Positions 7,307 to 42,708 of a stretch of DNA of 64,000 nt are shown here, piece after piece; within the stretch, counting starts at the first letter, position 1; each line of letters starts with the position of its first letter. The stretch lies in the NCBI GenBank assembly GCA_002633005.1, contig NMRA01000530.1:204374-268373 (forward strand). The letters run 5' to 3'. Made by a program: the position numbers and the translations under genes. The notes below the pieces were generated by a model. It saw only the letters and a list, made by a program, of their open reading frames with translations. It ran no database searches and was not told where the DNA came from. The stretch is from Phoronis australis. Its lineage: Eukaryota; Animalia; Phoronida.

Positions 7307-7702
7307 CTAACACGACAAGCTTCTGAGTTCATTTCTGTTTTCAACATCTGACTGTTTACTCTGTCCTGGAATAAGTGGTTCTTCATACTCGGTTACATTA
7401 GTATGACTGTAAACACTTGCACAGGACTGTACATCTAAATCATGAGCATTCTTCCTGGCAGATTCTTTTAAGTTCATTCTCGTATTATTCGACGTTGTAG
7501 CGGTCTCTGGACAGGGCTGTTTATCTTCATCAGGAGTCATTGTCTTGGCCAAATTTTTCAATTTCAATTCCTGTCGTTCGTTGATACAGAGATCTCTTAA
7601 ACTCTTAATTGATTTCGTAACGGACTCTCTCGAGTTCATTTCATTCGAACTCTCTGTAGAACAGCCGTCGATCAGGGGACAGAGGATACAGCACTTCACC
7701 AA
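7307..7702 (-). pseudogene. Open low-complexity linker between the Mab-21 and JAMM remnants
   Basis: 131-codon hydrophilic S/T/E/K/N-rich open frame ending about 40 bp before the JAMM homology begins on the same strand. Confidence 0.5.
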
Positions 7703-8229
7703 TCGTTGTTAACAATGCCAATAAAACAGCAATTCTAGGCTATGCACTTACTTAAATTCTGGATTTTCGAATAACACCTGTCCATTACAACCAATGAACG
7801 TTTTAATACTTGCATTACATCAATACAACATTTGTTATTTCATAAACTGTTAGCATTTTTGATTTAAAATAAAGGCGAAACTTAAAATTTCAAGATACAA
7901 TTCAAGCTTACTATCTTACCAAATGAATTGGCAATTGACACTTGTAGTTTTGAACATGCAACAACAGCATGTGTTGATTACTTGTAATATCGATTTCATA
8001 TTGTTTAAATGTTACTTTCTAAAAACAAAATTGATTGCAGTGGCGACAATAATGTTTGTCGGTAAATCTTCAGCCTTTTATTGTACCATTCTACATCTTC
8101 TCAGACGATGTGCCGCTATTGAGAAGATATGCGTCTAGGTTTTCCGGATCCACCATCATGTTCCCTCGGCTAGGTGTATCCCGATCCCAATGTTCACCAA
8201 GAGTGATGTCAACGTTTACCCATTGCTGA

Positions 8230-19681: not shown

Positions 19682-21730
19682 TATAGAACGAGGCCAAACT
19701 GACGCTCTCTTATCTATATAATCTGTTTTGACGATAGCAAACAATTGTTATGCTGATAAGGAAAGATTTTCATCTTTGATTCAGCTATTCCATTAATTGA
19801 ATATTAAGGCAGTGAGTAGGGAGGGCACGGCGTTTTAAAAGCAACTAATGGGTCGTCAATTAAGACGCGCAGTTCGTGTAAGCATGTATATACAGTTTGA
19901 ATTTCAATTTTTAAAAACAGACGTTTATAGAACGTATAACAAAGTTTTTGTCCGACCGGTCGAAAACGAGACGGCGACTATTGGTCGTCGATGACAATGG
20001 CAAATAAATGTTTGCACAGACTAGCTCTCTCATTCTCTGCTTTCATTTGATAAGCTCACGTAATCCAGCAATTATGTTGTAAACAGAGCGCCTGACGCTA
20101 GCTGATATTTAAAAATACTTTTTGCAAATGACTTTCAACAAATGTCATGAAGCAGATGTGTTTTGCATGAAATACTTCACCAAAAAACTTATAGAGAAAA
20201 ACTGTTGAATTTTAGAGACATATGACTCAACTTTCACCTGTTGATTCCTTTGTGCGACCGTAAGCTCTGACCAGCTTAACAACAGCATTGTGTACCATCA
20301 CATAAGGCTGGCTTGACAAGTCTAATGGAGCGTGATTCTAAATTAGCCTGTGATAGTGGGATTTTTTTCAATTTTTACACTCCAGGAGAACGGTACATGT
20401 ATGTAAAGAAATAGGTGGTTGTTCTGCTTAGCCTTAGCAAACTACATTATTTTTGAAAACAGCTGTTGTCGTGCCACTAGCAGGGTAATTTGCTGCTTGT
20501 CCCGCATTCCCAATCCAAGTTACAACCGCAGCTGTGACTGAGCAACCGTGATTCATTCTCGGGATCTGCCAATTAGCTAGCCAGCCAACTAGCTGTAGGA
20601 ATACTAGCAGCAAAATACAACTATATGTAGAAGTCGATGTTTGTAAATTTTATTCAGACCTAATAATTTCGCAGCACCTCAGTAGTTCTGCTTGTGACCG
20701 TATTAACATGTAGAGATAAAGAATGAACGGAGTACTTGCCCAACGTGAGCTCACAAATGACGTTTGTCGTTTGCTATGTATTAAAAACGACCACTGCCTG
20801 CATGGAAATTATCTTTTTAAAATATGATCGACATATGATCCATATCCCAAATTTAGCCTCCTTTGACGAATTGATTATCTGATAAAATCATCAAATCAAG
20901 CAATTTCTGAATTTCATACTCCACCCCGAAAATGTGCTCTGCCTCGGTCACACCTCTGTGGTCTGAAAACCAACATATTGATCTCGGTGAAAGAAAATGG
21001 TTGTATATCAGCAAGTCTTTTGCGTGAAAGATTCTCACGATGAAGTCAAATTTCACCACCTAAGAACTAAATTATGAATCGAATTACATGTCCGTATGTT
21101 ATCTATTGTATGTTATCAATGTGACAACCGCCCTGCAGTGCACTTTAAAAACAACAGCTGCGCAGCAGATGAAATCCCCCATATTAGTGAACCAAATTAT
21201 TTTCGTTTTAATTTTAGTATATTCAGGATATTTACTAATTTATTTATTGACGTATGCGCTCAAAAGTACATGGCTAAATGTTTATTCAGCAGTTGTTAAG
21301 TGGTAGCCACATTTCTCTTTTAGATTTCAGCCACTAATCTTAAAAATCCGTCGAGGTATTGAAAATTAAGCTACATTATTATTCAGAAAATATGACGTGA
21401 CCCATAAACTATAAAAATATACATGCGAAGACACACACACGCACGTGCGCACGCACGCACAAACACTTGCAAACGCACACCTATTTGTTTCTGATAAACT
21501 TAGCTTTTACCATCAACCTCAACATTTGAAACTGCAAAGTTCACCAGTGTCTAGATTCGTAACTGAAAGCACATATGGTGTTCAGGCAACTTGAGTTTCC
21601 AACCACTCAATCAATTTCCGAGACTGGGGCGTAGTGCTTATACATGTATGAACAGAACATTCTGTCACAAGACTTTAAGCCATTTCTAGCTTTAATAGTC
21701 CGGAATAGGTAATGAGCTTATAGATTTATT

Positions 21731-24700
21731 CTAAAATATAGACATACTTCGATTGTTTAAATTCCCCTGAGATAAGTTTATTTTTGGCTGTGTTCTATCG
21801 TCTGCCATGTCTACACTTGACTGAACTTTATGCCATATCATCTGCGACTCATGAAAGCTCTCATAAGCTAACCTTTCTTTCTTCAAATGCTTGTACATTT
21901 CACTCTTTTTAGATAAACAAATCGCAATTTCAGGATGATTGGAGTCATTTCTGTAGACCCTTGACCATTCCCTCAACGATTTGTCGTAGTGCTCTGCGGC
22001 TTCTTCGAATTTTCCCATGTCTTCGAGCTCGTTTGCAATCTGATACAAACATTCTGCGATACTAGCGTGATTTTGATTGTGATGAATCTTCCTCAGTGTT
22101 TCTAAACATTGCTGAAATTTCTTTTCAGCTTCTTGGTGTTTGTCCATTTTGCTGCAAACACGTCCTATGCCATGTAAGCACGATACAATGTGAGGATTAC
22201 CCAATTTTCCGTAAATTTTCTTCATAAAACGTAACGATTTTTGGTAGTAGCTCTCGGCCAATGGGTATTCTCCCAGCTCATAGCAAACATTGCCAGCGTT
22301 ATGCAAACAGAAGGCTACTTCAGGATGAGGTACATCACCGTTAATACGTTTCATCATGTCCAACGAATCTTGGTAGTATTTTAAAGCCACGTTTTTCTCG
22401 CCTTTTTCACTATACACGTTCCCAATGTTGTTCAACCTGGATGCAATTTCGGGATGATCAATGTCACCGTAAATTCTTTTCACCATTTCCATCGAGTCTT
22501 TGTAGTATCGTAAGGAGGAGTCGACCTGACTCATTCGACTGTGCACACTAGCAATGTTGGACAAACTCGATGCAATGTCGGGATGATCTATATTTCCAAG
22601 AATCCTCTTCCTCATTTCCCAAGACTTTTCAAAGTATTCCAAAGCTGACGTGTACTTACCCATGTCATAATACACACCCCCAATGTTGTTTAAACACGAT
22701 GCAATTTCACTGTGGTCTTCTACACCATAAGTGGTGTGCATTACTTGCAACGATTCTGTCAGGTGTTGCAATGCTGACGCATGCTGACCCATCGTGTTAT
22801 ACACATTTCCAATGTTATTCAAACAAGGTGCTGTCTTAGCTTGATGTCCATCACCGGGAAGTCTTTTCCACATACTGAGCGCATCTTTGTAGTGTTTTAA
22901 GGCTAGCTCGTACTCATTCATCTTCATGTACATACTTCCAATGTTGCTAAGACTGGATGCAATGTCGGTGTGATCGATATCTCCAAGAATCCTCTTCCTC
23001 ATTGTCCACGATTCCACGAAGTATTGCGTGGCTGAAACGTAATCACCCATCTCGCTGTACACACTTCCAATGTTATTCAAACACGACGCTATTTCATGGT
23101 GATCTGCGCCATAGCTCATTTTCATTAAATCAACCGCTTGCTTGAGTTGTTGTAAGGCTATGACGTGCTTACCCATCTTGCTGTACACATTTCCAATGTT
23201 ATTCAAACAAGATGCTATGTGAGCTTGATTTCCATCACTGGGGAGCCTCCGCCACATATTCAGCGCATCTTGGTGATATCGTAAAGCTGATTCGAAGTCA
23301 TTTAACTCACTGTATACATTACCAATGTTACAGGAACACGAAGCGATATCACGGTGGTCAGAACCATGAGCAATCCTCTTTCTCATGGCTATGGACTGGT
23401 TATAATATTCCAATGCTTGTTTGTATCTTTTCATCTCTTGGTATGCATTACCGACGTTATTAAAACCTGACGCAATGTCAGGATGATCACTTTCGCCGTG
23501 AATTCTTTTCAGCATGTTCAAAGAGTCATGGCAGTACCGCAAAGCTGACTCGTATTCACCCATGCCAATGTATGAACTACCAATGTTATTCAAAAATGAT
23601 GCAATTTTAGGGTGATCTTCACTATAAACCCGTTGCATTAAATGCAACGATTCTTCGTGGTGCTGTAAGGCTAACGCATTCCTGCCCAGGCTGTTATACG
23701 CAGTGCCAATGTTACTCAAACAAGCTGCGATGTCAGCTTCATTCTCATCAGCAGGATGGTTGTGCCACATATCTAGGGCCTCTTGGTAGTATTGCAAAGC
23801 TGACTCATACTCATTCATCTCATTGAACCCATTACCGAGATTACTGAGGCATGATGCAATTTCAGAATAATTTGTTTCTCCTTCAGCACTCTTCATTAAA
23901 CGCAATGATTCTTGGCAGTGTTCTATGGCTAAATCAAATCGTTGCATTTTGAAGTATGTACTCCCAATATTATTCAAGAGAGGTGCAAACTCTAGACTAT
24001 CTGTATCGCCGTGAATTCTTTTCTTCATACTCAATGAGTCTTGAAAGTATTTTAAAGCCAGATCGTATTGACCTTTGTCACTGTACACGGTTCCAATGTT
24101 GCTCAAACACGATGCAATTTCCGGGTGTTCTTCCCCATAACTCTTTTGCATTAAGCGCAACGATTCGTTGAAATGCTGTAAGGCTAGCGCATGTTTACCC
24201 GTCTTTCTATACACATTGCCAATGTTATTCATACAGGGTGCTGCTTCTGTTTGATTTCCATCACTGGAAAGTCTTTGCCACATACTGAGCGCGTCTTGGT
24301 AGTGTCGCAGTGCTGACTGATAGTCAACTAATTCACTGTACACATTACCAATGTTACTTAAACACGACGCGATGTCACGATGGTCAGCGTCTCCAGCCAT
24401 CCTCTTTCTCATATCTAAAGACACTTTATGTTGCTCCAGCGCTTGTTTGTATTTTCTCATCAATTGATATACATTACCAATGTTATTAAATGCCGACGCA
24501 ATATCAGGATGATCATTTTCACCGTGAATCCTTTTCATCATGGTCAATGAGTCTTGATAGTACTGCATGGCCGATTCGTATTTACCCATATCACTGTACG
24601 CACTACCAATGTTGTTTAAACACGACGCAATTTCAGGGTGATCATCAGTGCCATAAGCTTTTTTCATCAAATTCAACGATTCTACGAGGTGCTGTAGGGC

Positions 24701-26937
24701 TAATGCTTGCTTACCCATCTTTTGATATACAGTGCCGATGTTGTTTAAACACGATGCCATGGTGCCTTGACTGGAACTTCCATGAAGTCGTTTTATCATA
24801 GAAAGCGAGTCTGTGTGATACACCAAGGCGGTTTCGTAGTCGCACATATTACTGTACGCGTTCCCAATGTTATTCAAACATGAAGCAACGGTGTCGCGAT
24901 CCGCACCACCACAAATTCGTTTTTGCATGCTCAAAGACTCTTCGTAGTGTTTCAACGCTAAAGCAGGGGAGCACATTTTACTATGCACATTTCCAATGTT
25001 ATTCAAACATGACGCTACGTCGTTGTCATCTCCATTTCCTATGATACGTCGTCTCATATCTAAGGAGTGTTGGCAGTATTCCAGGGCAACTTTGTAGTTA
25101 CCAACATTTAAGTGTGCACAGCCGATCTTGTTCAAGCACGACGCAATTTCTGGGTGGTCACTTTCTTTATAAATCGTTTTCATTAAGCTCAAGGACCTTT
25201 CGTAGTATGTTAAGGCCATGTCATGCTTGCCAACTTTGCTGTACATATCAGCAAAGCTGCACAGAAGTGACGCAACGGTACGTTGTCTAATACCATGTAT
25301 ACCTGAAGGTTCGATGACTATCGAGGTTTGTGCTGACGTATCACAACTTTCAGCTATACTGTCAATCAAATGCGTTGATTCACCCAGCCATTCCAATGCT
25401 TTTTTCTGCACGACGTCATCTATGGGGGCATCTAGTAAGCTCAAGTAATTAAGGAGCTTTTCAATATCATGAAAGCTTTTCTCTGTTGTAGATTGTGGCG
25501 AAATGAAAAGTTTGCCAGCCCTCAAAAGGTCTTCGTCAAAAAACTGCTGTTTGTTCGTGTCAAACGCAAAATCAGGACCTTGTGTACACAGAAAGACCAA
25601 GAGTGGAAAAACCGTGCAATGGTATCTCATGATCAGAAGATTGTAGTTGCTGTTCTCAGGCTCATCGCCAGTCAAGATTTGGTTCAACGTAAGCAGTGCA
25701 ACTTGCTGGTTATCATTGTGACCAACCACCCTCAACAGTGTGTTTATTGAAAACGCCACTTGCAGATTATGCTTTGCTTTTTCTGACAACATTTCCTTAG
25801 ATTCCATTTCATCAAGCGCGTCCCAAATGTTGTCGTTTTCCAGGCAAAATAGGGATTTTAATGCGGCAAAGAGCCCATCAGGGCAATTTTTTATTACCTT
25901 CGTCGGTTCCTTGTCTTCTTCCTCCAGGTGTCCACGCACCATCAACCTGTATGTTTCAAGTAATACGTCTCCACCTTCACTACCATCTATTTGTAGAACA
26001 TGAGTTAACCCATGACCACTTGGCAATGATAACCTATCACCGAATACACCTGCCATGTAACTGGGAGTCCCGACTAATGTGCAGCTTTCTCGTTTTGTTG
26101 TGCGAGAGTTGGGAGGAGTACTATCTAGTGAAAACCCGCTACCAACAGCGTCATCCACAAACCAATTTCCACCAGGTACATCAAGGTCATTTAGTGACGT
26201 GATATTCAAAGTACTGACGTCTGTTTCTCCCATGTTCAGGCCAATCATGTGGACAAGTTTCAGCGTGTTTTTGAAGTAGTCAATATCTTTGCAGTCATCG
26301 TCTAAAAGAATTCCCAACTTAATTTCGGAATATGTTGTAGCATCGCCTCTTGCCAAAGACCCAAAGGCAAGTGTAGCATAGTCGCAATTCGCTGGGCCTA
26401 ATATTTCTCTAGTCTGGGAGCAGAAATTCTTACACAAAGTCTTCACTTCAGAGTTCAAATTTTCAAGGAGTTTTCTAGTTTCTTCGACAAACATTTTTTC
26501 AAACTCAATTCGTTCATCCGTTGGTGCATCAAGTGTGAATTTGGCTTCAAAGTCGTCTAGTATCTGTTTGGCCTTAGAGGTTATGTCACGCCTACATGTT
26601 TCAAGCCTTTCTTTATTGTTAGGCTTGAAGTCAATGGGCAGCGTATCTTGATCTTTTGATATGGCTCGGCAGAATGTGGCTTCATTTTCTCTCAACAACA
26701 TTTCAAGATCCCGTTCGAGACTTGAATCTTTTACCCTAACTAAAGCAGCGTTATATAACGCAGAAGCGGTTACAAAGTGTTGCGTGGACTTAGTCAGCAA
26801 ACCTCGTTCTTTGTGAACACTTCCTATTTTCTGAAGTATTTCACCAACAGACACCGAACTCCCCTCAGTTGATGAGAGTTCTTTAAGTGATGCTGCGAGT
26901 TTTTTTTCCATGGCATCCAGCCGTGCGAGTCGTTTTT
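21731..26937 (-). CDS. Terminal exon: N-terminal TPR-like helix, DUF294/Pol-beta-like nucleotidyltransferase (degenerate active site) and ~27 TPR repeats
   Basis: Uninterrupted 1745-codon ORF with a phase-1 acceptor GTATTTCAG|AA at 26937; LGPANCDYATLAFGSLARGDATTYSEIKLGILL NTase signature; 42-44-aa units HPEIASCLNNIGxVY...YxxAL..Y..SL.M.KRI.G; stop at 21731. Confidence 0.92.
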
Positions 26938-28722
26938 CTGAAATACAGCAACGTTCGGGATATATCAAGTGATGAAAGATAGTTTAGATTTGAGACGCCA
27001 TGTTTTTATCGAAAGGTAGTAGAGGTATCCCATCAAATTTTCAGAACATGAAAACGAGTATAAATCACGAAACCAAGTTTTCTTCGGACCTAGAAAAGCT
27101 GAAAAATTTTGATATTTCTTAAAAACGTAAAAAAGAAGACCAATGGATACGTCATGATGGACCCAGCTCATGATTTTTTATTGTCTGTACGTGATCACGG
27201 TACCAGTTATCACGACTACATGTAATTTTGATCCGAATTCAAAATGAATCTGAGGGGTTATGGGCACGTAATTTGTTCAAATCTCTGAAATAATACATGT
27301 CGATTGGACCGGGCCCGCCAACATGTAGGTACCTGTCTTTATATATTGGCGCACTGCTGTTGCATTGCATTTTTGTTCTTCCGAAAGTACCTCCAATGTT
27401 ATGTGTTTTCTTTTTGATAAAATCGGTAGGCTGGATCTTGATTCCACAGAAAACCTGATTTGAATTCCCTGCCACAGGCTGCTATCGGCGAGTTACCCGG
27501 TCGAGGTTTAAATGTTTCCAAATGATGCCGATTAAGGATCAGAATTTGAAATGCCAGGCCTGAAACGTCGCGGAGGTATGTCCCGAGGAAGGCGGGCTCA
27601 TCATTGACTGTCGACAGTGCTTTTTTCTCCTGCAATCATCACTGCTCCACCTGTACATTATTTAGTAGTATCATAACGTATGATGTCATAATTTAAGAAT
27701 GCCATAAAACAGTATGTGTATATCGTATCCTGAGAGTTTGAGAGTAAATTACCACAAACAGCGATTCTAGAGCACCATTAGTGATTGCACCCTTCATGAT
27801 ATATGTACATGTACTCAAAACGTATATGGTTTTAGCAAACGCAGCTCCAAAAACGTGCACGGAAACAATCTATTCAGCAGATGCTGTATACTGCGTGTAA
27901 GGGGAATGTGTCAATTTTGATCGCTGTATACACACTGTGGTCCGAAAAGTATCATATTTAGTACGTAACCTATGTCCATATTTTTCGAAAGGTGTACACA
28001 ATAGGCCAGCTAGTATCTTTTGACATCATCGTGAAGCAACTTAGACAGCCCACTAAACAGCAATAGATAATTAAAATTTATCCCGATAGGAGCTAAAAGC
28101 GGTCCACCTTTTTTAATCATAACTCCCACTCCCTCTGGGAATTGCCCACTTCCATTTCAAATCCTATAATCTCGACTGTTTCAGTTTTCTGACATATTTC
28201 GGACAATATGCTGGTCGTTCTGCTCTGCAAAATATTTGTGTAATTAAACGGCAAAAAATCTTGCTTGTGAAAGACAGTGAGTTGATTTTGCCTTGGAAAT
28301 TCTTAGACACTCCTCACGAAGTCTCGATATTGTTGGGAGATCTGACTGAAAGAGGGCCTACGGCTGTGACCATTATTTGAATTAGCTACATTTCCGGTCT
28401 CCAGATATGTGACAACCAAACGTTCACTTGTTTCGGGCACACCATATTTGTGGAAAACTATACCTCAACGATTTAATCTGCTGCTGTTTACCATACTGTC
28501 CAGGACGATTCATGAATATGTCAAAAACTTTGGTTGCATTTTCCCACTCCCTGAATTCGCTCCCATTCTCCCTTTTAATCTTATATTCTAAAGGGGGGGG
28601 GGGACGATTCTTAATAGAAAATCTGGCAAAACGTGAAAATTGCTTTTTGGTGTATTTTTCTCACCTTGCTTTAACTCATTTGTTTGTCTTTTTTGCATGG
28701 GTAATAAATTGGATATACTGAC

Positions 28723-28804
28723 CAATTAACAAAATCTGATAAATCATGAGTCTCTGGAGGTTCAGATTCTGTAGTTCCTTGAGAAATTTGACTTTTAACT
28801 TCTC
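28723..28804 (-). CDS. Candidate internal exon (phase 0 to 1) EKLKVKFLKELQNLNLQRLMIYQILLI
   Basis: TTGACAG acceptor and G|GTCAGT donor; the phase fits a GC donor at 29570 and the phase-1 terminal exon. Confidence 0.5.
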
Positions 28805-29508
28805 CTGTCAAATAACTGACAATGCGGGCACTTGTCTCGGGCCACCTCTCAAAGAAAGGATCCCGTCTGAGAGTTTGCCCTTGACACGGCAGGCATGCTT
28901 CGTAAATACTGTACTCCAAATATGAAAGGCTATACCAATCAATATGGAAAGGAATGACGGTTGATACTGTAACCGGGTCAACTAACGTCCATCATACGAC
29001 TTCATAAAAACAAAATCAGAATGGAAATTGACCCCATCTTTGGGTCTTTCCGTGAGTAGCTCCTTCAGAAAAAGAGTGCCTTCAGTTACCTCAGCAACAG
29101 CTGGGATTCACATCAAATTCTATACATTGAACTGAAAAAGAGAAAGCATCTCTTATGGGAGAGGATTTAAAAATATGTGCAATACCAGTTTTCGGCATTT
29201 TTCGAAGTATATGCTATTAATTGCTCAAGCAACGACCCATGCTGCATTATTTTATATTTGTGGTCTACAAAAAATTCCCGGCTAGGGTCCCCAAAGCGTA
29301 AATTGACAGTGTTATCTACATTTTTAGATACTTCCTTGTGTTTTCTTTCTCCGAATGTTTCTGTTCTACGGCTTGTCGCTACACAGGTTCCATTCTCACG
29401 TTTGCGCTTAGTCTACGCCCACCCTCTTTCCATGCCTCCCCCAACGCCACCGAATCTCCCCCGCGTCCCCCTCTTTCTACGCATATGCACTTGCCATCTA
29501 TACTGTAC

Positions 29509-29658
29509 CTGTTGCTTCAGACAGTTCTACGTCAGGCAGCTTAGTTCCCTTTAGTAGTTTACAACTTGCCATTCTTAGAGTGTCATGCGATGCAGAGAGA
29601 GCTGTGAGTGCACGCTCGAGGTCGGCTTCTGCATCGTCTAATTTCTTTAAAAGGTCGC
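29509..29658 (-). CDS. Internal coiled-coil exon DLLKKLDDAEADLERALTALSASHDTLRM...
   Basis: Acceptor TGTCTTTTAG; donor either ATG|GCAAGT (29570, phase 0) or CAG|GTACAG (29509, phase 1); heptad-like sequence. Confidence 0.7.
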
Positions 29659-30370
29659 CTAAAAGACAAAATCGTGATTTATGTAGCTATTACTATCAAT
29701 GGACCCAAACGTGTGTTTTCAGTAACACGTTGTAAAATATAGCAGTTTAAACCCTCCCCAATACATGTCAATTGTCCCTTATTCATTATGATATTCATCT
29801 TTGAATTTGTACTCAAACAATACCGTAAAAGCAGAGGGGGTTATTAGTAAGCACTCGATCATTCCAAACATAAAAGTTCTATTCTAAGGCTGAAACAGGA
29901 AATTTGTCACAATTTGGCTACATTTGGAACAAAAAAGATCAGAAGTGGCTGTTGAAATGCGTACGAACGTTCAGATATTATACTTTGGGCAAAGCTCTCT
30001 ATACATTATTTTGTTTAAAATATCACTTTTGCTTAAAGTGCTATCAAAATTTATACTTTGAAGAATATTCAGAGAATAAAATAACAGTGATATTTAACAA
30101 GATGAATAAATACTAGAGAACTGTTGTGGAAATTCTGACTTCAACATTTGTCGAATTTTCCTGATACCAATTTTGCAAAGAAAATACTAGTAGTTTTTGC
30201 TGAACTTTACTGAAAATGTTGTCACGAGACCAATCAATGGTGGTTGGGTACGGAGTCGAAAATTAAATTCTACGCATTTTCTACTTCCAGGATTGTTTAT
30301 ATTTCTACTGATCAAGTTAAGCAATTAAGTACATATCTGTAAATATGCAAAGACATGCTGAGAAGGTTAC

Positions 30371-30422
30371 CATCAGCGTTAACTTGAATTTTCGTGTTTG
30401 AGGAGTTCCTAGCTTGATGTAG
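30371..30422 (-). CDS. Internal exon (phase 0 to 1) LHQARNSSNTKIQVNAD
   Basis: TTACAG acceptor and G|GTAACC donor; phases fit both neighbours. Confidence 0.55.
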
Positions 30423-31020
30423 CTGTAATCAAATCCGCCCAAAGATTAGACACTCATTTGCGTAATCCATGATGAACGTGAGCTCAAAATCAAAACAAAC
30501 ATTTTCAGTGTATACATACAAAATGTGTATGCCGATTAATTTGACGTTTTATTTCGAGTTCGGACATTTAATTTCATGCCTGAGGTTCCGTTTCATGAAC
30601 AATATTTTTGTTTCGCGTAAGCTTTTCCACAACTGCTTCCCATGACCAACGGATTGTCGTTGTGCAAAGCCCATCAATGAGTTCTCACCTAGCATTTTCT
30701 TAGTTTCTGAGGTTACAGTTAGATGATATGAAATACATGTAAATAGCTTAAAACTAAATATACACTTCTGATGCCAAACAGTGGCAATTTTTTTAATTTT
30801 GAAAAAATTAGTTATGTCCAAGTTTCTCCCAAAATGATGTATTGGGTGGAAGACGTTTGGTCACTTGACAGTTAATTGCAGTGGAGTACACAGCAGATCA
30901 GAAGACGAGGACGATTTTAAGCGAGAACTGGACAATTAATTTGCAGACTTAGCAGAAAGTGGATGCTGCATCATTCCACACTCTCGTGCGGCGCACAAAC
31001 CGTTGCCATTTCTGTGCAAC

Positions 31021-33642
31021 CAGTGGCGGATCTACGGAGGGGGTTCGGGGGGGTTTAACCCCCCCTAGGCCAGGACCCAAAAATTAAAAAAAAACGTCTC
31101 CAGCAAAACAAAAACGGTAAACCCAAAGTAAACCAACTTGGAAAAAAATGAGGGGGGGGGTTCACTCTGAAAATATACTTTTTTGCATTGTGAATTGCTG
31201 TTATGAAAATCAAAGCATTTCGAGTCTTCGTGGCTCATCGGCAAAACCCCTGAGATCAGTTGTGCGGGCGCTTCTGTCGACACTTCTGTAGTAGCCAAGC
31301 ATTTTAGACGGATGCACCTCTGAAAGGGCAGCTCTATAGCTGATTTCTTCAGGTAACTAGAAGTTTCTTTACTCTAAGATATGTTTTGATTTGATTAGGG
31401 GAAATACTGTGGTGCCGCAACCCTGATATTCAGGCGACTTGACGTGCCACGTTTTTACCTAATCTGTCATGCCGTGTCATCCTATTACATCCCACACGTT
31501 TGTAACTCGAATTTGACTGGTGTATATTAAAGATGTCCTGCGCAATATCATACAGTGTAAATGTGCATGTAATACTTTTGAAAAAAAAATGTTTTCCAAA
31601 GAATTGCTATTGTGGCAAGCGTCGTGGTCTGGTCGCAAGTCTGAAGATGCACTCTAACAGGTTATGTCTATTCAAGGAATAACCAAGGGGGCACTCACAT
31701 TGACAAAGCAACCGCATTCGCGAACAGTGTACAGTGCCAGAAGTTGCGAGGAGGCTGTATTTTCACAACAAAGTCTTGCGGGACTCGTGCGATGTTCAAT
31801 AGGCCTAGGCTTCCTAAAGAGCCCTAGTGCCGACCTCAACACCTACCGTCTTTCTACCTGCAATAAGCACCACTGCCGTTTTCTATACTGGGAATTTCCG
31901 CAGAAAGGCCAACCCGACAAAACGCCCATGCCCATGGGCATTTATTTGATGTTAGTACTTCGGGTTTCAAGCGTTCAGACATTGGGACGCTTATTTCGAA
32001 AATTGCAAGAGATGCAAATGGGTCCTGGGATACATCGTCAAGGTTTGAAGTAGTCCATGATGAACGGATCAAATTTAGTTGCGCATGCTGTAAGTCTTTT
32101 GAATGGACTTGGTAACCTCAGGGGGCTTAGTACCAACTGAGCTGCGAAACGAGATGCTGACTTTGTAGGGGCGTACAAGCTCATTGACACAGCAGTTGAC
32201 GAAGTGCAAGTGTTGGGAACAAACGTCGAAGATGTCTGGGTAGAATGGTTCCAAGAGGAGCAAACCATTGGATCCGATATACAGATTCCTCGGCAGTCTA
32301 GACAACAGAAAGATAGGACCAACGTTCCCGGAGAAACACCCAGATAATAAGTCATAATTCTACACAGTTTGTAACAATGTCGGTTTTTTATGCATGTGTA
32401 CAATGAAAACGAAAAGAAATGGTTTTGGACATGCCAAATTTACCACGTACAGCAGAGGGTCTACGAGCGCACAGAAACTGATTCTGATTTGTATTTCCAC
32501 TTGAGTTTATCTGCTTCATATCCAAAATCTAGTTCACGTAGTGCGTAGTTAAATCTGTACTCAATACTTCTTTCTTCCAGTGAGTACTACAGAACGGTGC
32601 GAAAACCCTTCCTAGACAAGCTCTCGCAGCAGTTGACCACCATATGTGTAAACTACACGTATGAGCAACCACTGGGGATTAAAAAGTGTCTAGAGAGAAG
32701 TTTTCAATTCACAATTTTTTGCAAAGTACGCTTTAGGTCTCGCGACGGACCAGGCCAGCTTGATTTGTGTAGATATCGAGTTTCAGTGTACTTCTGGTCC
32801 CTCGACGAACTTGTCTCGTGATGTTTTTTTTAACAAAGTGTGCTTTGTAAAACTATTTATCTCAGCCAGTAGTGTTTGGTCCCGCGACACATCGACTATT
32901 TTTATAGGGATAATAAGCACAGGTGTACTTTTAGTCTCGTGACGGACCAGGCCAGAATTTTTGTGTACTCTCAGTGTACATCTGGTCCCTCTGCGAACTG
33001 GTCCTGTTATCTTTTCACCACGGTGTACAAAATGTTTTGGTTTCGTGAAAATGTTTTCCGATTATTTGTTTCCTGATATATTTGACGTTTTTCAATTGTT
33101 TGCAACGTGATTCAGCTTAATGAAGTGATACTTATTTGTTTATTGTCGCTTTCAATAATAGACTATGAGCTGAGAGCACCATCGTTCACCAGTTTTTTTC
33201 GTAACGAGACAGAACACATATTTATTTCCGGACTAACAGTACAGGTCTTTGTTCGTAAACAGCTTGAGCCTGTTGCGGTCATCTGATATTCAAGTTTTTA
33301 CGCCTCGTCGGTGCTCCTTATGCTCTTGAATAATTGGTAGTTGCCTAAGCCCCTGTATACACATCACACTTTTTCGTATGCTAAAAAGGTGTGTGTAAGC
33401 AAATGTTCCAACAAAAATTTTTGCTGGTGGTGTGACTCATACACAGATGTGCACAAACTTATGAGCCAAGTTCATGTGACGAAATCGAGAAGGGCTTTCA
33501 ATTATCTTATGACATGTTAAGTGCCAGAAACGTACCAGGATGCATGGAAATTTCACTGTTTGGCTACAAAAACAAAAAGTTTACCCCCCTCCCGTGCAAG
33601 ACANTATCCTAACCCCCTCTTACTGAAAACGTAGATCCGCCA
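31021..33642 (+). mobile_element. Intronic, internally deleted hAT DNA transposon
   Basis: TIRs CAGTGGCGGATCTACG (31021) and CGTAGATCCGCCA (33630-33642); flanks TGTGCAAC/TAGGCAAC resemble a decayed 8-bp TSD; transposase remnants IPRQSRQQ..R.NVPGETP and EYYR..RKPFLDKLSQQL. Confidence 0.8.
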
Positions 33643-33726
33643 TAGGCAACTTTCACGTATTTAGAAAATTTGAACACAGAGACGTTCTCAATCAAGTTGT
33701 TGTTACTACAGCCTCCACAAACGCAC

Positions 33727-33787
33727 CTTTTCATGTATGAAAAAGGCGACTCTGTGCAGACTTTCCTCACAACTCCTCAGTATTGCA
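33727..33787 (-). CDS. Internal exon (phase 2 to 0) AILRSCEESLHRVAFFIHEK
   Basis: TTTTCACCAG acceptor and AAG|GTGCGT donor; requires the 34328-34364 mini-exon upstream. Confidence 0.5.
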
Positions 33788-34327
33788 CTGGTGAAAACAA
33801 CAATGGTGAAGGCGGTCTTCCAACCATTACGTACATGTACAACCTCGATAACAGAAAAATATTTTTCTGTAATTTTTGGCTTTTTTCTTAGCAACAGGTA
33901 TACTAAAGGCAAGTAGATCTCTTAAGAGGTATTACTAAAATTGTTTGTGAGACACAGGGTCATGGTGGGAACTCTTTAAGTCTAATTGCTAAATAATGAA
34001 TTGTATAAAGTATATATACAATTACACCATACTGTATACGCACCCCTAAGTGTGGAAACCAGATGTCGCCTAATCCGATTGCCAAAACTATGTCTGACCT
34101 TCATTAAAGGTAAAACTTCTCGTCTCAGATTATTTACATCAACTAGACTTAGTACACAATCCCAGCAACATTTTATAACGGCGATTTATTGAAACGCATC
34201 GGCGTCGGTGACCCCCATGCTTGTTATTTTACAGAACACACGACCCGCATCAAAATAAAAATTATTAACGTAGAAACTAGAATTCCAAAATTTGAGGTAC
34301 TCAAAACCCAGAAAAACGTTTACTCAC

Positions 34328-34364
34328 TCCGACGTGACATAATTAATAAAATGCGAATTTTGAT
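34328..34364 (-). CDS. Candidate 37-nt mini-exon (phase 1 to 2) QNSHFINYVTS
   Basis: Strong donor GA|GTGAGT, weak acceptor GGCTTAG; restores the frame between the flanking exons. Confidence 0.35.
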
Positions 34365-34947
34365 CTAAGCCGTTTAAACATTAAAATGGCATCGAGCAAC
34401 GGAAATGATCCGTTTTCAAAATGATTTAAATTATTGATATATTTGTAGGTGAATTTTCAGGTAACTCATGTTCATTTCACACTTTAACAGAGGTGCCTCT
34501 TGTTGTGATGTTATAATTTTCTATGACGTCATCCTTTTGTGACGTCATTCTTAAATCCTGTCAATATATTTTACAGTTCTTTTATACGTTTCTGCTTCAT
34601 TCTATTAGAAAAACATAGCACCTCTAACGGAAAAAAATAATTCCGTGAGCCTGTATTTTTGTGGATTTGTAGTTGGCAAGTACTAATATACAAAATATTA
34701 CTTTAAAAGCAGCGACAAATTTAAAACTGTCCAACCCCCAATAAGCTTGAAGTATTCTGTTCTTGTAATGAACCAAAAGTCGCAAAATAATGATTATACC
34801 AGACGTTACCTATCGAACTGGTGATAACAACGTTAAGATACATTTGAACACATGCAGTGAACTGTGTAGCTAAGAATTGTCAGCCAGTTTGCAAAAGTCA
34901 AATGAGCGCATTCAATTATTCGAGTCAAACAAAAAGAGTATTCTTAC

Positions 34948-35061
34948 TGTCTTTCTTCTCTGATGCATTAAACTTTTTCCTAATTTCGTCGTTATTCTTT
35001 CGTAAGTCCTCATATTCCTTTTGTAGCTCGTCAACCTGTTTCTCAAAATCGTCGGATTGAT
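34948..35061 (-). CDS. Internal coiled-coil exon QSDDFEKQVDELQKEYEDLRKNNDEIRKK...
   Basis: TTTCAG acceptor, A|GTAAGA donor, 114 nt, phase 1 to 1, clear heptads. Confidence 0.75.
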
Positions 35062-36365
35062 CTGAAATGAGTGTCACGTAATTTTGTAACAAAATCTTCA
35101 TTATAGCATACCGGAAAGCAACGGAATCACAACATAAAGCAGGGCTATGGTGAATTCATCTGTCCGTCATCCGGTGAATTTAGAGATACACATCAAGTGA
35201 TTGCAAATAAATTGTTCAGCTTTAGTGTATCTGATTTTGAAGATTTGTAAACAGTGGTAAGAGTGTCATTGCACCGCATTTAAGCGAATTTAAGGGCGAA
35301 GTAGAGGGTTGCCCCAGCCAATGCCCCTACTGGTACGGTCAAAGAAGAAAAACAAAGCAACAGGCATTCCGTTTTGGGCGTGCTAGAGGATATTTTTCCA
35401 TTTCGACTGGGCCTCTTTTTGACATTTTAATTATTGGTGCACCGTGTTCCAGAGCTTTATAACTGTTTTGCATTTGTCTGCATTATTTCGTTTAATTTTA
35501 AACTCATCCTTTCCAATTGAAACATAAAGATTCGCCCCAGTAAATAAATGGAGTCTTGGTTGTTTTAGTACCAACTTTGTACTTCGAGTTTACTCTATAA
35601 CATCAAAACAACCTTCCCACAGACACTACATTAGACAGCAAAACAATGTTAGCGACCTTACATTTGGCATATTTCATTCTTGGTGACCAATACTTAACAA
35701 TAGCACTACTGGTTGCTCGACTCGTTTGTATTGTGAGACGTATTATCAGCGCCCGCGGTTTCGAGGCCCAAATGTAAAAGTATACCAAACCTTGTTTTGA
35801 TGATTTCAACCAATTCTCGTTCTGTCACCTGCAACTACATCATTAGCGCTAATCTTCCAAGTTAAAGACAGGAATCAACTAAAAACTCATACTCTCGACC
35901 CTATCTCAAAATTAGACGCGATGGTCCTTGGTTTGGGGTCCTTTCCCACAGTTGCCGTGTGGTTAAAAAAATTTAGGTCACGCTTGCCCCTTAAGCAGAC
36001 ATTGAAAGGAGTTTTCAAATTTTGCTCCAAATTTTGAGGGTGTTACGGTTACAGAGCATTATTTTGTTGCAGAGAATTGTATGGGAAATTCAATTTTAGT
36101 ATTTCTTAATGGGACAAACCGAGCTTGGTATTGACCATAGAGTATGTGAAATTCACGTAGCACTAAAGAGACTTTATTTGAGAATACTTACAGAGGTTGG
36201 CGGAGTCAAGTTGTAATGTAATGATTTTCATAATAGAGTTTTATTAAGGATATGAAACAATGAAGGAAAAAGGTCATTTTGCAAAACGCTGAAAATGCCT
36301 TTGTATTAATATAAGCACATCCAATATTCCCATGTATTCCTAAGGGAGAATGACTAAAAAGGATG

Positions 36366-36601
36366 TCATTTCAAAAGACTAAAAATAGTTAATATAGCAA
36401 AAATAACAGGACGAGCGTCAGTAATAAATTGTATTAAAATATTCCCGATGTTTCGAGCGATGCGCTCTTTGATGGGATTATTTTAATATATTTTAGTACC
36501 GACGCTCGTCATTTTATATTTACTATTTTTACTTGTTTATATTCTTATCCCTGGATAACTGCACGGCATTCAAGCACCTTTTTGGTTCATTTCAAAAGAC
36601 T
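36366..36601. mobile_element. Short hairpin insertion with a 15-bp TSD, Penelope-like remnant
   Basis: TCATTTCAAAAGACT at 36366-36380 and 36587-36601; internal inverted arms GACGAGCGTC..TATTAAAATA..CCC / GGG..TATTTTAATA..GACGCTCGTC around CGATGTTTCG. Confidence 0.6.
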
Positions 36602-37040
36602 TTTATTCGAAAGTGGTTCTAAAATATTTCGAGGGAGATATTTATCTAAACCAAACTACAGTATGATGAAATAAAAATATTTCATCGTCAAGACGAGAAC
36701 TTTTTGGCATTCTCTGTAACATGCCACCTATTAATTTATGCAATATTTTGTTAAGCTGAGGTAAAATTGCAGATTTCATCAACATATGGGAATATTGGAT
36801 ATGAAGAAATTCATACAAAAACATTTTAATTTCTTTAAAATTACGTTTCTTTTATTATTTCATATCCTTAGTAAAATCCCGTTGTCATATTCCATGAATT
36901 GTAACATGACTCGGCCAACATTTTTCGGTTTTGCATGTTTTCGTATATAATGCCTCTTAATTATCTTGAAAACTTGAAGCAATGCGGAAAAGTTGCTCCA
37001 GATTACGAAATATACAAATATACCAAACCTGAAATCTCAC

Positions 37041-37361
37041 CCTTCTCCATATCTTCGACGGTAAAGCTCAACTCTAAGGGAGACCCACTTGTCATCTGTT
37101 TTATCTTGTCGGTTAGCAGAGCGTTTTTTATTCCTTCAGTCAAAAGTCCTCCGCATAGCTTTTGCTTAAACTGCTCCATAGCTTCTTCACTGTCGGATGC
37201 TATCACGAGTTCAATGCACCCCTTTTTGATACATACTACTTTGACTTTACCACCAGACACGCTTAGTAAATATTGTTTTAAGGTCGAGTCATCTGTTCGT
37301 TGTTCTTCAATGATTTTCCATTCCACGAAGTCGCCAAGCTCACTTTCAATCTTCAATTTTG
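37041..37361 (-). CDS. Internal exon encoding a TRADD-N-like domain
   Basis: TTCTAG acceptor, G|GTGAGA donor, 321 nt, phase 1 to 1; LKQYL..KVKVVCIKKGCIELVIASDSEEAMEQFKQKLCGGLLTEGIKNALLT..LELSFTV fits the TRADD-N-like pattern (v..v..G(S/C)i.l.v...s.eal..l....G.L). Confidence 0.7.
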
Positions 37362-37597
37362 CTAGAACAAACATGGATACAAAAGAGATTGAATACCATA
37401 GTTAACAACAATTGCTGCATTTGACAGACGTCACCGGTTCTGCAGGGTAAACCGGCTACTAAGACATCAGAAGAGCGTTAGGTAGATCTTGCTTCGTGAG
37501 AGAAAAGTAAGACTTCACAAGACCTTGCAAAATAAGAACAAAAACGAGTTTTTCTCAAGCATTCTTAGGAGTCTAATATCATATTAATGTATCCTAC

Positions 37598-37646
37598 CAG
37601 AATGGCGGCCACTGAACTGAATGATCGGTGAAGTTAGATCGTTTAT
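37598..37646 (-). CDS. Candidate exon (phase 0 to 1) INDLTSPIIQFSGRHS
   Basis: ACACAG acceptor and G|GTAGGA donor; pairs in phase with 38213-38295. Confidence 0.4.
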
Positions 37647-38212
37647 CTGTGTGGTTGGATTCACTGGGTTAAATAGTAAAGGTTTTTCAAGCTGGTGTCT
37701 TGCGGTCTACGGAGCTCAGCTGAGCATCAATCGGTTGTCAATGACGACTTCCGGTGTATGGATCAATCAGGTGCCATGAATAAAACCCTCTGTTGACATC
37801 CTAACCGGTTGAGGTTGGGCAATTTGACCTATTCGTATACGTTCAACCCTGCCGGTATTGATTGAAGACACCATGCTGTTGCAGTTAACTATATCGCCTC
37901 AGGCTGCTGATGTGGGCGTTATCTAAATAATCAGACCCACCATAAACACATAATTTTTAGTTTTAAAAGTTTTTCAATAACATGGTTGAATAGCTCGTCA
38001 AAAGTACAAGTGAGTAGGCTTTTGAATTTTGAGAATCAAACAAAAATGTGACATTTACTATCTATAATGTTCGTGTAATAGAGTTGTAATTTTATGTTCA
38101 TTATTAAATCTGCAGGGTGTGCAACTCAATTAGGCCAATTTTCAAACCCTCAGGCCCTTGTTTAAGTTTAACATGAGCCAAGTGTAATCGTACAATTCTT
38201 GCCATGACTTAC

Positions 38213-38295
38213 CTGGTTGAGCCAGCGGAACCGGTCAAGACAAAGATAATTAACATAGTGTAAAAGGATATCATTGAGAACGTACAGTAGATACA
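38213..38295 (-). CDS. Candidate exon (phase 1 to 0) YLLYVLNDILLHYVNYLCLDRFRWLNQ
   Basis: CTACAG acceptor and consensus donor CAG|GTAAGT; open frame. Confidence 0.5.
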
Positions 38296-39144
38296 CTGTA
38301 GATGCGAAAAATACAATTTTTGGGACTTAGTATAAAATAATTTCCCGATATTGTGGATCCGCCTGGCTCCTTCTTCTGAGGATTAATGATTGAATGGTTC
38401 CCGCTAAACCTTTGTGGCCTTCTGACTGTCTTCAAGGACGTGAGTGAGGCGACTTAAATCTGACCCCGCACCGTCTTTTCAAAGGGGGATGTTTGCTTTA
38501 ACCCATGTAGCCTCTTTGACACCTCGATCAAACCAAGAACTTTCTATGACCAGTACCCCCATACCCGCTGTCTCGAACGCACGTGTGCCCGTGTCACTAA
38601 GGTGATCAAAAACAGCAGAGGTTAAACCAGTCACTCATCAAAGCCCAGTGTAAGGAGCGAGGCGGCTCTTCATCGTCGGAAAATTTATTTTAAAGCAAGC
38701 TCCACAAGTTGTCGTTGATTGTTTTCCGCATCTAGTTATTCACTTGGATGAACGACCTTTTAGAAATGTGGTAACGCATACAGTAGAAATTTTGTGCCAA
38801 GAATATTTTTCTGTAAGCTGTAACGAGGTTTTTGAGATTTCATCTTGAGACATTTATAGAAAACGAAATTTGGTCATGTCATTGAAACCTTGTTTTGCTA
38901 TTAATTAAATTCTTTTATTTTTGCTTAAATTTAGTGCACAGTATCCTGAAACTCAATTATTGGTATATACATGTAGGTATGAAGCAAAAATCAAATTTTA
39001 TAGGATTTCTTCATTCAGCAAATATGTACTTTTACTTTGTGAACTCAATCTTTTTAGACTCAATTCACAGACCTTCAACGATAAGATCTTACACAGACGT
39101 AAAAATAAACATAGAATTCTAAATCAATAACCCAAACAACTCAC

Positions 39145-39210
39145 CGATGTGATTATATTCATTTTCTTCTATTTCTAGAAGTCGCTGGCGCTTGAGATTG
39201 AGCAGATGTA
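39145..39210 (-). CDS. Internal exon HLLNLKRQRLLEIEENEYNHI
   Basis: TTTCCAG acceptor, G|GTGAGT donor, 66 nt, phase 1 to 1. Confidence 0.7.
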
Positions 39211-39908
39211 CTGGAAATAAGATTTCTAAGTCTAGTGAAGGCAGCCGTCTACATGTGTGTCAGGGGTAGACTGACAATGGGTTTATTTGTTAAAACTGCA
39301 CTTCCTGAGTGTTTAACTGCCAAAAAACACGAAACTTAAACGGGGGCTCTTAAGGTAATAAACTTAGTATCATAATGATCGTTACTGGACAATCACGTTG
39401 AAATTACCAGCTACCCAAGACAATGATATAGAGTTTATTGGCCTTAGCCAATGCCAGCATTTCGAATTTGAAATTGGCTCTTACACGCATTGCCAGAGAT
39501 ATGTGTTGCCGAATCAGTCGGAAACCATTTAACATAGAATAAGCATGACAATGTTTTTCTCTAAAATTGAGACTTTATAAACAGTGGCGAAATGTTGTTT
39601 TAGGAATTATTTGTCTGCGCTAGTTGTTTAGTGTCAGGAAAAGATAGAGTCAACCTAAACGGATTTCAGCCACAATTCTTGAGAAAAATCCCGTAAGTTC
39701 TACATGTAGCATAGATAGTGAATGATATATTTTAGCTATCTGACTTCCCTCACTTTTCTCCTGTCGAAGTAATTTGTCGCTTTAGTTCTTCTCCCTTAAA
39801 ACCCGGCACTGTCGATAGTTTTCAACAAATGTTTGGATTTCACAGCACATGTGCAACCAACCACTATACTGCATACATTTAGAAATTCTGTGTACGAAAA
39901 CAACTTAC

Positions 39909-39977
39909 ATCTTTTCCTTTGGAGATCCAGAACTCGGCTTGTTACAGATCTACAATTCTTAGTTTGGCGATAAATCT
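39909..39977 (-). CDS. Internal exon IYRQTKNCRSVTSRVLDLQRKR
   Basis: TTACAG acceptor, T|GTAAGT donor, 69 nt, phase 1 to 1. Confidence 0.7.
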
Positions 39978-41442
39978 CTGTAATAGGATATTTACATGTA
40001 TTTTTTAAATTTTATATTTGTTACATATTTTCTATAAGTACACTGTACATGGTGACTCAATCAAAAAATACCCACGTTTTGTCTTATTACATAATCATTC
40101 CTAAAGAAATCCTTAGCTGTCTTATCAAATGAAAACTACTACGATTGGATGACATTTCCTCCAAATTACAAAAGATGTTGATTCGCTACCGTGTAATTGC
40201 GTGACAACAATTGCTCAAGTATATAACAATTATTCATTACCGGTTGGTCATTCGTAACCTCGACCCAGTAAGTGCCAATAACGTCATGTTTTCGTGTGGC
40301 TGCTCAAACTGTGGCGTTTTAGGAGTGCAACAGTCTCTATAACACATAATTAGAAGGTAATCTGACCCCAAAGACATAATTATTTTAGTATCCATGACAT
40401 TTGCAACAAAATGGGGGCACTTGAACAATATTTTAACAAGGCATCAAACGGTCATGAATCAGCGATATTTTGTGAATAGACAGAAATGTCATCATCCACT
40501 AATGAAACTCTCATTGTTTAAACTTAATAGCGATTTATAAAGGAAAAATTTGCAGAACCCAAACCGTGAGTAATTCTGGGCGTCCGTGTGAGTAATCTAT
40601 TTTTTGTTTTCTGCAATTATAATGTAACTTGTTAACATTCAACCAATTTTCCTGGTTGTTTCAACTAAATCAAGAATATACAATGATTGTGGCTCTAAAC
40701 GATACAAAATCCAATTCTAAACCGTGAACAGTCGTAGTCAAGGCCAATTTTCTTGTTCCATACATGAAACGCAAATAGACACAAGCGGTGTTTGTACATC
40801 CTTCCACAACATGTTGGTAATTAGTTTATAGCCCCAAACATGTAACCCACTATGTTAACATGTAGTAATTGACTTATTGCAAGCTCCGCCCCCTTGCGTA
40901 GTGTCTACTAACAAACATTATGTTTTACCCGGCAAAGTGTTGCTTGGTGGGTAAAATGGCGGCTTGGAAACGAAGGTGTGTCAAGAATGATGAGTTCTAA
41001 AGGTCAGTTAAGTAAGCCGTCACTCAAAATCCTGGCGACAGGTCAATTGTGTCAGACGACCATCATTCTATGGAGATGGCTCATTGTTCTTTGATATGAA
41101 GGTTCTTTTTAGGCAAGCACAACACAGCTTTGTCTGCAAGTGCTGCTGGATGTACTCAGAGTATTTCTATCAAAGAATCACGGTTGATTCAGGACACGAG
41201 GCCCAATACCCTTTTCATCACCAATATTACATCAACACACAGTTTGCTGTGGAACCATTCATTGTTTGTATAGTAACTGACGATGCTTGACTGAAGTTAA
41301 GCGAAACGTCTGTGTATATATGTATATATGCGAAAGTAAACGTAATGTTAAAACTTTTTGCTGTTTCATTTTCATTAGTTTATATAAATAAATAAATAAA
41401 TAAAAAAATTTAAATGACATATTTGAGTAAATGTTAGTTCAC

Positions 41443-41661
41443 CTTCGCTCAGGTTGATATGGTCATTGCTGTCTGCCGTTGGTTCTTCTGTTCTGCGATA
41501 TAGTTGTTTGACCTCGGTTAACTCAGGCTCAATTACAGAGGACTCAGCTATAGAAGCATCATCGCTGCACTGCACTGGTTTGTCTTTCTCATAGACGTTA
41601 GACAGGTGTGTCGTAAGTGAGTTATTTTCGCTTGTTCTGTCTTCAGGTGGCGAGTTGTTGT
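41443..41661 (-). CDS. Internal low-complexity exon NNSPPEDRTSEN...INLSE
   Basis: TTTCAG acceptor, G|GTGAAC donor, 219 nt, phase 1 to 1. Confidence 0.7.
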
Positions 41662-41850
41662 CTGAAAGGGAAATAATGCTGATTATATCTCCAAAATCAA
41701 ATCTCAATAGACAGCGATGCTTTAATTTAAGAAAAAGTATTACAAAAGACGTAAATAGATGCAAATGAAAGTACTATTAAAGTTTTGTTAGACGTACACG
41801 TGACATGACACGAGGATCTAAATTTACAACGCCCTCAAACAGATGTTCAC

Positions 41851-42708
41851 CTGTTCCAGTACCTAGGAAGCTAATAGCACACTGCTTAGAATGTACGAGG
41901 GTCTGTTCATCTTCGTCACCAGTTGCCGTTGACGACAGCGGGTCTCCAAACCGGCTTGAAAACGCATAGTCTCCACTGCTTGACTTGATAACTTTCCGAT
42001 TCCTTTCATCTTCTTTTGACGTTTGATCTTTTCTTGAAGACAGTTCTTCAGACTCCTTGTCTAGAGAAGCTCCGCCATCAGTGTTTGATTCGAGAACTTT
42101 GGTTTTTGTCTTGTCCTCTTCCGATGTTCTACCATGCCTCTCCTCATCTCGGTAGACCCTTGATTTTGTTTTTAGGGTTTCAGACCGACGTGTTTTCCGG
42201 AATGGAGAATCTTGGTTTCCAGTGCCTAACTCGGAAACATCGCGATTTGTTTGATCTTCGTCAGATAAGCTAGTGCCTTCCCCCAATTTATCTCTTCTTG
42301 GCGACAGTTCTTCAGACTCCCTGTCTAGAGAAGCTCCGTCATCAGTGTTTGATTCGAGAACTTCGGTTTTTGTCTTGTCCTCTTCCGATATTCTACCATG
42401 CGTCTCCTCATCTTGGTAGACACTTGCTTTTGTTTTTAGGCTTTCAGACGGACGTGTTTTCCGGAATGGAGAATCTCGGTTTCCAGTGCCTAACTCGGAA
42501 ACATTGCGATTTGTTTGATCTTCGTCAGATGAACTACGACTTTCCGCCATTTTATCTCTTCTTGACGGCAGTTCTCCGGCCGAGATTTCTGTGCTATACG
42601 AAGATTTCCCAATCCTAGGTTTTGTTTTAAATTCTTCCGCTATTGCATCTACGTCCGCTCTTGTTCTCATTATATTAATTCGATACACAATTCGTTCAGT
42701 GCAAAGAT
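41851..42708 (-). CDS. Large disordered S/E/D/R/K-rich exon with an 88-aa internal repeat; most 5' exon identified (start codon not found)
   Basis: AATTTCAG acceptor at 42708, CAG|GTGAAC donor at 41851, 858 nt, phase 1 to 1; overlaps the 303-aa ORF. Confidence 0.75.
42039..42570. repeat. 264-bp tandem duplication inside a coding exon
   Basis: G(A/G)CAGTTCT anchor at 42039, 42303 and 42567; peptide SDEDQTNRxVSELGTGNxDSPFRKTR...EEDKTKT...ESEELS occurs twice. Confidence 0.95.

Follow-up and report, generated by a model that had tools for sequence, protein, structure and literature searches.

On the minus strand of a 64,000-nucleotide stretch of Phoronis australis DNA (GenBank assembly GCA_002633005.1, contig NMRA01000530.1, positions 204,374 to 268,373; hereafter the window, to which all positions refer), we identified exons for a TRADD-N-like domain, for coiled coils and for a degenerate nucleotidyltransferase (NTase) with 27 TPRs, and we consider that these are likely spliced, in at least one isoform and with a rough probability of 0.5, into a cytosolic adaptor of about 2300 residues with a predicted role in innate immunity. 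The locus is a divergent variant of the TRADD-N+NTase+HEPN+TPR architecture of invertebrates. That architecture has already been catalogued, and what appears to be new here, judged from sequence, is a predicted dead active site, a coiled-coil linker and a divergent lineage.

The minus-strand frame 26983-21731 is open over 1750 codons, and its terminal exon begins at a phase-1 AG acceptor at 26937, which is outscored by fewer than 3.7% of 792 control AGs or ranks level with that share. Both this acceptor and the 27 TPRs, each of 42-43 residues, had been read from the DNA letters in an earlier note on this stretch, and both were confirmed. The closest repeats are 5/9/13/17, 6/10/14/18 and 8/16, which indicates the trace of a four-repeat duplication. 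Moreover, the differences among 44 close repeat pairs are distributed over the three codon positions as 416/340/694, most of them at the third, as expected under past purifying selection.

The core of this exon has, in the model, the fold of GlnE/GlnD/DrrA-type protein nucleotidyltransferases, including the helical HEPN-like domain. A Pfam scan of the N-terminal 584 residues gave weak matches to DUF294 (E 0.0038, short of the curated cut-off), NTP_transf_2 and Polbeta. HMMER with exon residues 1-512 retrieved 903 representatives at E <= 0.001 (the best 150 of these were listed), the best of which bear DUF294 (up to E 2e-22) and DUF294_C, and in the ESM Atlas residues 100-460 group with DUF294/DUF294_C clusters (0.95). 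An AlphaFold2 model of the NTase region built on a 72-row alignment (predicted local distance difference test, pLDDT, 84.5; predicted template modelling score 0.86) matched the DrrA adenylyltransferase domain (Z 20.0, root mean square deviation 3.9, 285 aligned residues) and both GlnE domains (Z 19.9 and 19.4), the entries that followed reaching 12.3 at most. This is the structural comparison that the earlier note had proposed as a check, and it bears out the DUF294/GlnE type assigned there. The whole NTase and helical fold is shared with the GlnE/GlnD/DrrA structures (PDB 3k7d, 1v4a, 6yx5; Z 19.4-20.0 over 276-285 residues) at 10-14% identity; unlike the window protein, these have neither a TPR array nor a TRADD-N domain, and their metal ligands are lost in the window copy. 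The HEPN RNase motif R-x4-6-H was not found in exon residues 335-460, as expected for this HEPN subgroup, since the HEPNs of GlnD, GlnE and DUF294_C are among those listed without the motif in PMC3710099; of 68 homologues, 8 have it after the conserved Arg.

The class motif of GlnE and DrrA is G-S-L and then a Mg-binding D-x-D (PMC7815794), and D-x-E metal ligands are present in 161 of 169 domain copies from 152 homologues. In the window copy G-S is kept and the ligands read E-x-K, and we therefore predict a pseudo-enzyme in which catalysis is lost, the "pseudo" of the earlier note included. The window copy also lacks P201, K345, Y349 and R350, each of which is 94-99% conserved (69-71 rows). 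Other degenerate copies make up 8 of the 169, and the degenerate ligands in P0050 (Ptychodera flava), P0143 and P0140 suggest that dead copies arose repeatedly.

Such losses might instead mark a copy in decay within an expanded family, whose intermediate stops and eroded active site would reflect relaxed selection and which would give no functional product. The window keeps 41 of 65 family-conserved columns compared with a homologue median of 93% (a leave-in figure from 71 rows), three exon-like segments upstream break the frame, and no reads of the window copy were present in the four RNA runs; all three fit decay. However, the RNA runs may represent other tissues, haplotypes or sister species, the terminal exon runs through its 1734 codons intact, and the losses take in catalytic and basic residues but spare many structural G/L/W/Y positions. 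We regard decay as quite improbable.

The earlier note had further proposed an analogue of NLRs, with the NTase in place of the STAND ATPase. The domain order in this proposal stands, as the window protein has the tripartite adaptor-core-repeat order of NLR/STAND receptors. Read as a nucleotide-operated switch that would oligomerise when the TPRs sense a target, as STAND ATPases do, it fared badly: the fold is that of a protein AMPylase, the nearest folds are transferases and not ring-forming ATPases, the metal ligands and conserved basic residues are lost, and among these losses that of a conserved Lys and a conserved Arg in the helical domain argues against such a switch. Moreover, neither a Walker A pattern nor an LRR pattern was found in the 2321-residue model, whose repeats are TPRs, and with no NACHT/NB-ARC domain and no LRR the protein is not an NLR by the definition given in PMC3879445 (NACHT/STAND P-loop core plus C-terminal LRRs). 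In favour of the switch, amphioxus also has TIR+TRADDN+DED+STAND+wHTH+TPRs proteins according to PMC8195603, which suggests that the slot takes either core, and the activity of DrrA is switched on allosterically by its target (PMC7815794). The 161 of 169 copies that keep the catalytic residues, together with the 96 of 152 homologues in which at most 70 residues precede the module, point to an enzyme or effector with optional N-terminal add-ons and not to an oligomerising switch, which we hold to be very doubtful.

The exon 37361-37041 is, by sequence comparison, a TRADD-N-like domain, as the earlier note had suspected of this 107-residue segment. In the ESM Atlas it scored 0.94, with 219 of 256 features common with PF20694 TRADD-like_N clusters (PF20694 is on 18% and 58% of the members of the clusters ranked 1 and 3), and its ten best family matches all belong to the TRADD-like_N family or clan. 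A TRADD-N hidden Markov model, realigned from 22 non-window segments that were partly gathered with a profile including the window exon, ranked it first of 1243 open reading frames (ORFs) of the window (E 1.4e-4, next 0.9). In addition, its K-G-C-I-E-L aligns with the G-C/G-S of four amphioxus TRADD-N domains, and a u-S/C motif at the beta2-beta3 turn is described for TRADD-N in section 8 of PMC8195603. A Pfam scan of the exon gave no TRADD match, a word-indexed search that used only the exon recovered 0 of 206 candidates, and an alignment-based search of PDB sequences returned no meaningful match. For the RRM-like fold of TRADD-N domains, the single-sequence model of the exon was too poor a guide (pLDDT 44.6), with a best structural Z of 5.6 and no TRADD chain among the matches listed.

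Upstream exons were scored with generic splice weights of our own, together with a codon model derived from the big ORF. Six of the eight best candidates in 43000-26950 of the minus strand were of phase 1-1, compared with one of 15 in five 16-kb control stretches, an excess over chance, and seven upstream exons (the chained exons of Table 1) form with the terminal exon a stop-free frame of 2321 residues from ATG 42670. The earlier note had allowed up to 13 upstream exons in frame, which proved too many: seven chain without a stop, two more are weak and optional (28587-28492 and 27559-27497), and three break the frame. Its coiled coil was recovered as heptad patterns in exons 35061-34948 and 29658-29509, by a simple heptad score.

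Several observations weigh against a single spliced product. The three frame-breaking exon-like segments are strong and two of them lie between the coiled coil and the terminal exon; splice pairs scoring at least 11 occur at two places here and once in the five 16-kb controls, and from this rarity the segments are probably not all due to chance. The terminal exon contains an in-frame ATG at 26911 in good context (gccATGg), near the start point of many homologues, and a TATA-like box stands upstream of it. The window TRADD-N is 13-21% identical to amphioxus TRADD-N domains. Finally, no joint at any predicted intron was found in four RNA runs, the mapped reads of which come from paralogues and are uninformative on the window copy.

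These points could be read as two units, a TRADD-N/coiled-coil gene that stops at the TGA in segment 29131-29090 and a stand-alone pseudo-NTase-TPR gene starting at ATG 26911 or in a short nearby exon, either recently split or never joined. Indeed, the best acceptor of 35100-26880 is that of segment 29131-29090 and leads into its stop, so that inclusion gives a 599-residue TRADD-N/coiled-coil product, the start context and the TATA-like box would serve a separate downstream gene, and a long N-terminus is absent from most homologues (residues before the module: 70 or fewer in 96 of 152, 71-200 in 20, more in 36). However, the stop exon is exactly phase-symmetric and has a good donor, unlike a terminal exon, and the fusion of the two parts is annotated in amphioxus. 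Conserved residues also lie ahead of the ATG: the family helix G-D-L-D-x-A-E aligns to R-L-D-A-M-E of the window, spanning ATG 26911, and the half-conserved L (30 of 60 rows) and D (30 of 59 rows) before this ATG favour entry into the terminal exon by splicing. Two separate units are possible, although we think them unlikely. Selenocysteine at the TGA (29091-29093) was considered and rejected: nothing in the window matched Rfam at gathering score, and the seven weak matches in 20400-21800 included no selenocysteine insertion sequence.

The four RNA runs carry the same species label, and 18-19% of each raw run was read. Mapping at 90% identity returned repeat-derived reads, most of them only 90-95% alike to the window. 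Mapping at 80% on 21000-30500 returned 213-231 reads per raw run, none of them 99% alike, and 96-97% of these reads continue in sequence unlike the window. They are paralogue reads, which say nothing about splicing of the window copy. A contig of 4956 nt (record 6) from run X4 matches 26112-26177 in the NTase and 23193-23211 in the TPRs; this contig, and first mates in the coding part that are nearly all of one strand, indicate that an NTase-TPR paralogue appears to be transcribed.

At about 30% identity, the best protein matches belong to amphioxus, hemichordates, Ciona and Owenia. The animal DUF294-TPR family (Branchiostoma, Ptychodera, Saccoglossus, Ciona, Owenia) has the same N-terminal TPR-like hairpin, NTase, helical domain and TPR_10/12 array as the window; the best identity is about 30-35%, and unlike the window copy most members keep the catalytic residues. 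Literature searches, with most subscription papers outside their reach, found no paper testing animal DUF294-TPR proteins. N-terminal extensions of the homologues include extra TPR-like pairs, CARD, FN3, IRF, HEPN_DZIP3, F-box and OTU. A TRADD-N domain lies upstream of the homologous NTase in 4 of 152 (P0031, P0037, P0047, P0052) and also in P0200, where P0052 is XP_002605446.1 and the locus tag of P0200 matches XP_019613615.1/LOC109461677. Both accessions are listed in Figure 4 source data 1 of PMC8195603 as amphioxus proteins of CARD+FN3+TRADDN-DEDD2+NTase+HEPN+TPRs. P0052 and P0200 resemble the window in having TRADD-N ahead of a homologous DUF294 NTase (E 2.7e-29 and 3.6e-31), a HEPN-like domain and TPRs, whereas the window has no CARD or FN3 match and instead a low-complexity N-terminus and a coiled-coil linker, and D-x-E, kept in P0052, is lost in the window copy. 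Fusion of the upstream exons to the terminal exon is plausible, with a direct precedent in amphioxus. XP_002600337.1, in the same supplement, is given as TIR+TRADDN+Coiled-coil+NTP_transf, a likeness by listed domains only. In a FastTree tree (159 rows including the window, copies below 200 residues dropped, midpoint root) the window NTase formed a long branch, separate with weak support from the clade that contains the named Branchiostoma copies, which hints at independent assembly. According to sections 11 and 13 of PMC8195603, TRADD-N has expanded in marine invertebrates, where its partner domains are reshuffled rapidly, and a function in immunity is proposed there.

The Neochlamydia NEX2 family combines DUF294 and TPRs with F-box or OTU, as described in PMC4209131. 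Like the window, it has DUF294 in mid-protein, C-terminal TPRs and a variable N-terminal module; unlike it, its members are putative bacterial effectors with ubiquitin-system modules where the window has TRADD-N. F-box is present in homologues P0061 and P0147 and an OTU match in P0093, which we liken to NEX2 by domains only. No bacterial loci were recovered for the window module or for P0138. Two lancelet observations stand apart. P0031 (Branchiostoma) has TRADD-N, an IRF DNA-binding domain (PF00605) fused in, a DUF294 NTase with E-x-E, and TPRs; the P0094 cluster (Branchiostoma, seven members) has HEPN_DZIP3+DUF294+TPR and is 90% conserved across several lancelet species, in contrast to the fast-changing paralogues.

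If the exons form one adaptor, the TPR superhelix would bind a target protein, the GlnE/DrrA-fold module may act as a non-catalytic binding or scaffold unit, as a decoy or in regulating active paralogues, oligomerisation would be provided by the coiled coil, and TRADD-N, by comparison with vertebrate TRADD, may relay the signal by recruiting a MATH/TRAF-type partner. Inclusion of the 42-nt exon with its stop could produce a short form made of TRADD-N and coiled coil, or lead to decay or damped expression. Intact relatives of the module would transfer a nucleotide to protein; what is new and most useful is the prediction, drawn from the DrrA and GlnE fold matches, that intact members nucleotidylate proteins, and if so they would be a new writer of that modification in invertebrate immunity. 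The dead copy beside a TRADD-N adaptor would serve as an internal control and as a candidate regulator of the pseudo-enzyme kind, and even without the splice the locus remains a record of exons shuffled between two immune cassettes. Further, we offer as speculation, improbable as a whole, that marine invertebrates possess a GlnE/DrrA-type protein AMPylase family related to the DUF294-TPR proteins of intracellular bacteria and phase-1-shuffled behind death-fold, IRF, HEPN and TRADD-N domains, and that this locus is an independently assembled dead decoy or regulator whose stop cassette switches between adaptor-only and full sensor forms.

Table 1. Features of the locus and their window coordinates.
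Feature	Position	Strand	Details	Basis
Predicted first coding exon (chained)	41851..42708	-	ATG 42670; low-complexity, S/E/D/K-rich; 264-bp duplication	
Low-complexity exon (chained)	41443..41661	-	219 nt, phase 1-1	
Weak exon (chained)	39909..39977	-	69 nt, phase 1-1; below scoring threshold	
Exon (chained)	39145..39210	-	66 nt, phase 1-1	
Exon-like segment	38213..38295	-	83 nt; strongest donor; frame-breaking, outside chain	
TRADD-N-like exon (chained)	37041..37361	-	321 nt (107 aa), phase 1-1; G-C at beta2-beta3 turn	
Coiled-coil-like exon (chained)	34948..35061	-	114 nt, phase 1-1	simple heptad score
Coiled-coil-like exon (chained)	29509..29658	-	150 nt, phase 1-1	simple heptad score
Exon-like segment	29090..29131	-	42 nt, symmetric; good donor; TGA in last codon	
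Exon-like segment	28665..28804	-	140 nt; strong donor; in-frame TAA	
Optional weak exon	28492..28587	-	phase 1-1; in-frame ATG inside	acceptor score, donor by sequence
Optional exon	27497..27559	-	63 nt, phase 1-1	
TATA-like TATATAA	27339..27345	-	about 430 nt above ATG 26911	consensus match only
Terminal exon	21731..26937	-	5207 nt, phase-1 acceptor; 1734 codons without stop or shift	
N-terminal TPR-like helical repeat	26660..26932	-	exon residues 2-92	AlphaFold2 model
DUF294 + DUF294_C, GlnE/GlnD/DrrA-type NTase	25565..26779	-	residues 53-457; C-terminal HEPN-like helical bundle	
Degenerate catalytic motif	26318..26362	-	G-S kept, D-x-E to E-x-K	alignment
27 TPRs (TPR_10/TPR_12 type)	21827..25288	-	42-43 residues each; traces of 4-repeat duplication unit	
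AATAAA	21725..21730	-	directly after stop codon	sequence match

The 64-kb window has about 38% G+C and contains microsatellites and repeats. Within the first coding exon, the 264-bp (88-codon) duplication lies at 42026-42575 with 91% match, and upstream of this exon a 433-bp tandem array (44932-47265) has 5.4 copies with 72% match. A repeat-rich block at about 30800-33700 lies within the intron between the two coiled-coil exons and attracted many RNA reads on both strands at 90-95% identity; its similar ends near 31015 and 33646 suggest a single inserted element. A reverse transcriptase fragment at 59478-60245 of the minus strand (RVT_1, E 2.4e-10) is probably the remnant of a long interspersed nuclear element, and retrotransposons close to TRADD-N genes are noted in PMC8195603. 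A 133-codon open frame at 7307-7708, also of the minus strand, resembles a receptor cytoplasmic tail and had no Pfam match. Lastly, an exon-like stretch at 5258-5649 of the minus strand, with further candidates at 8699-8613 and 5027-4965, had no Pfam match either; it has a signal-peptide-like start and a basic cleavage-like site and is possibly the precursor of a secreted peptide.

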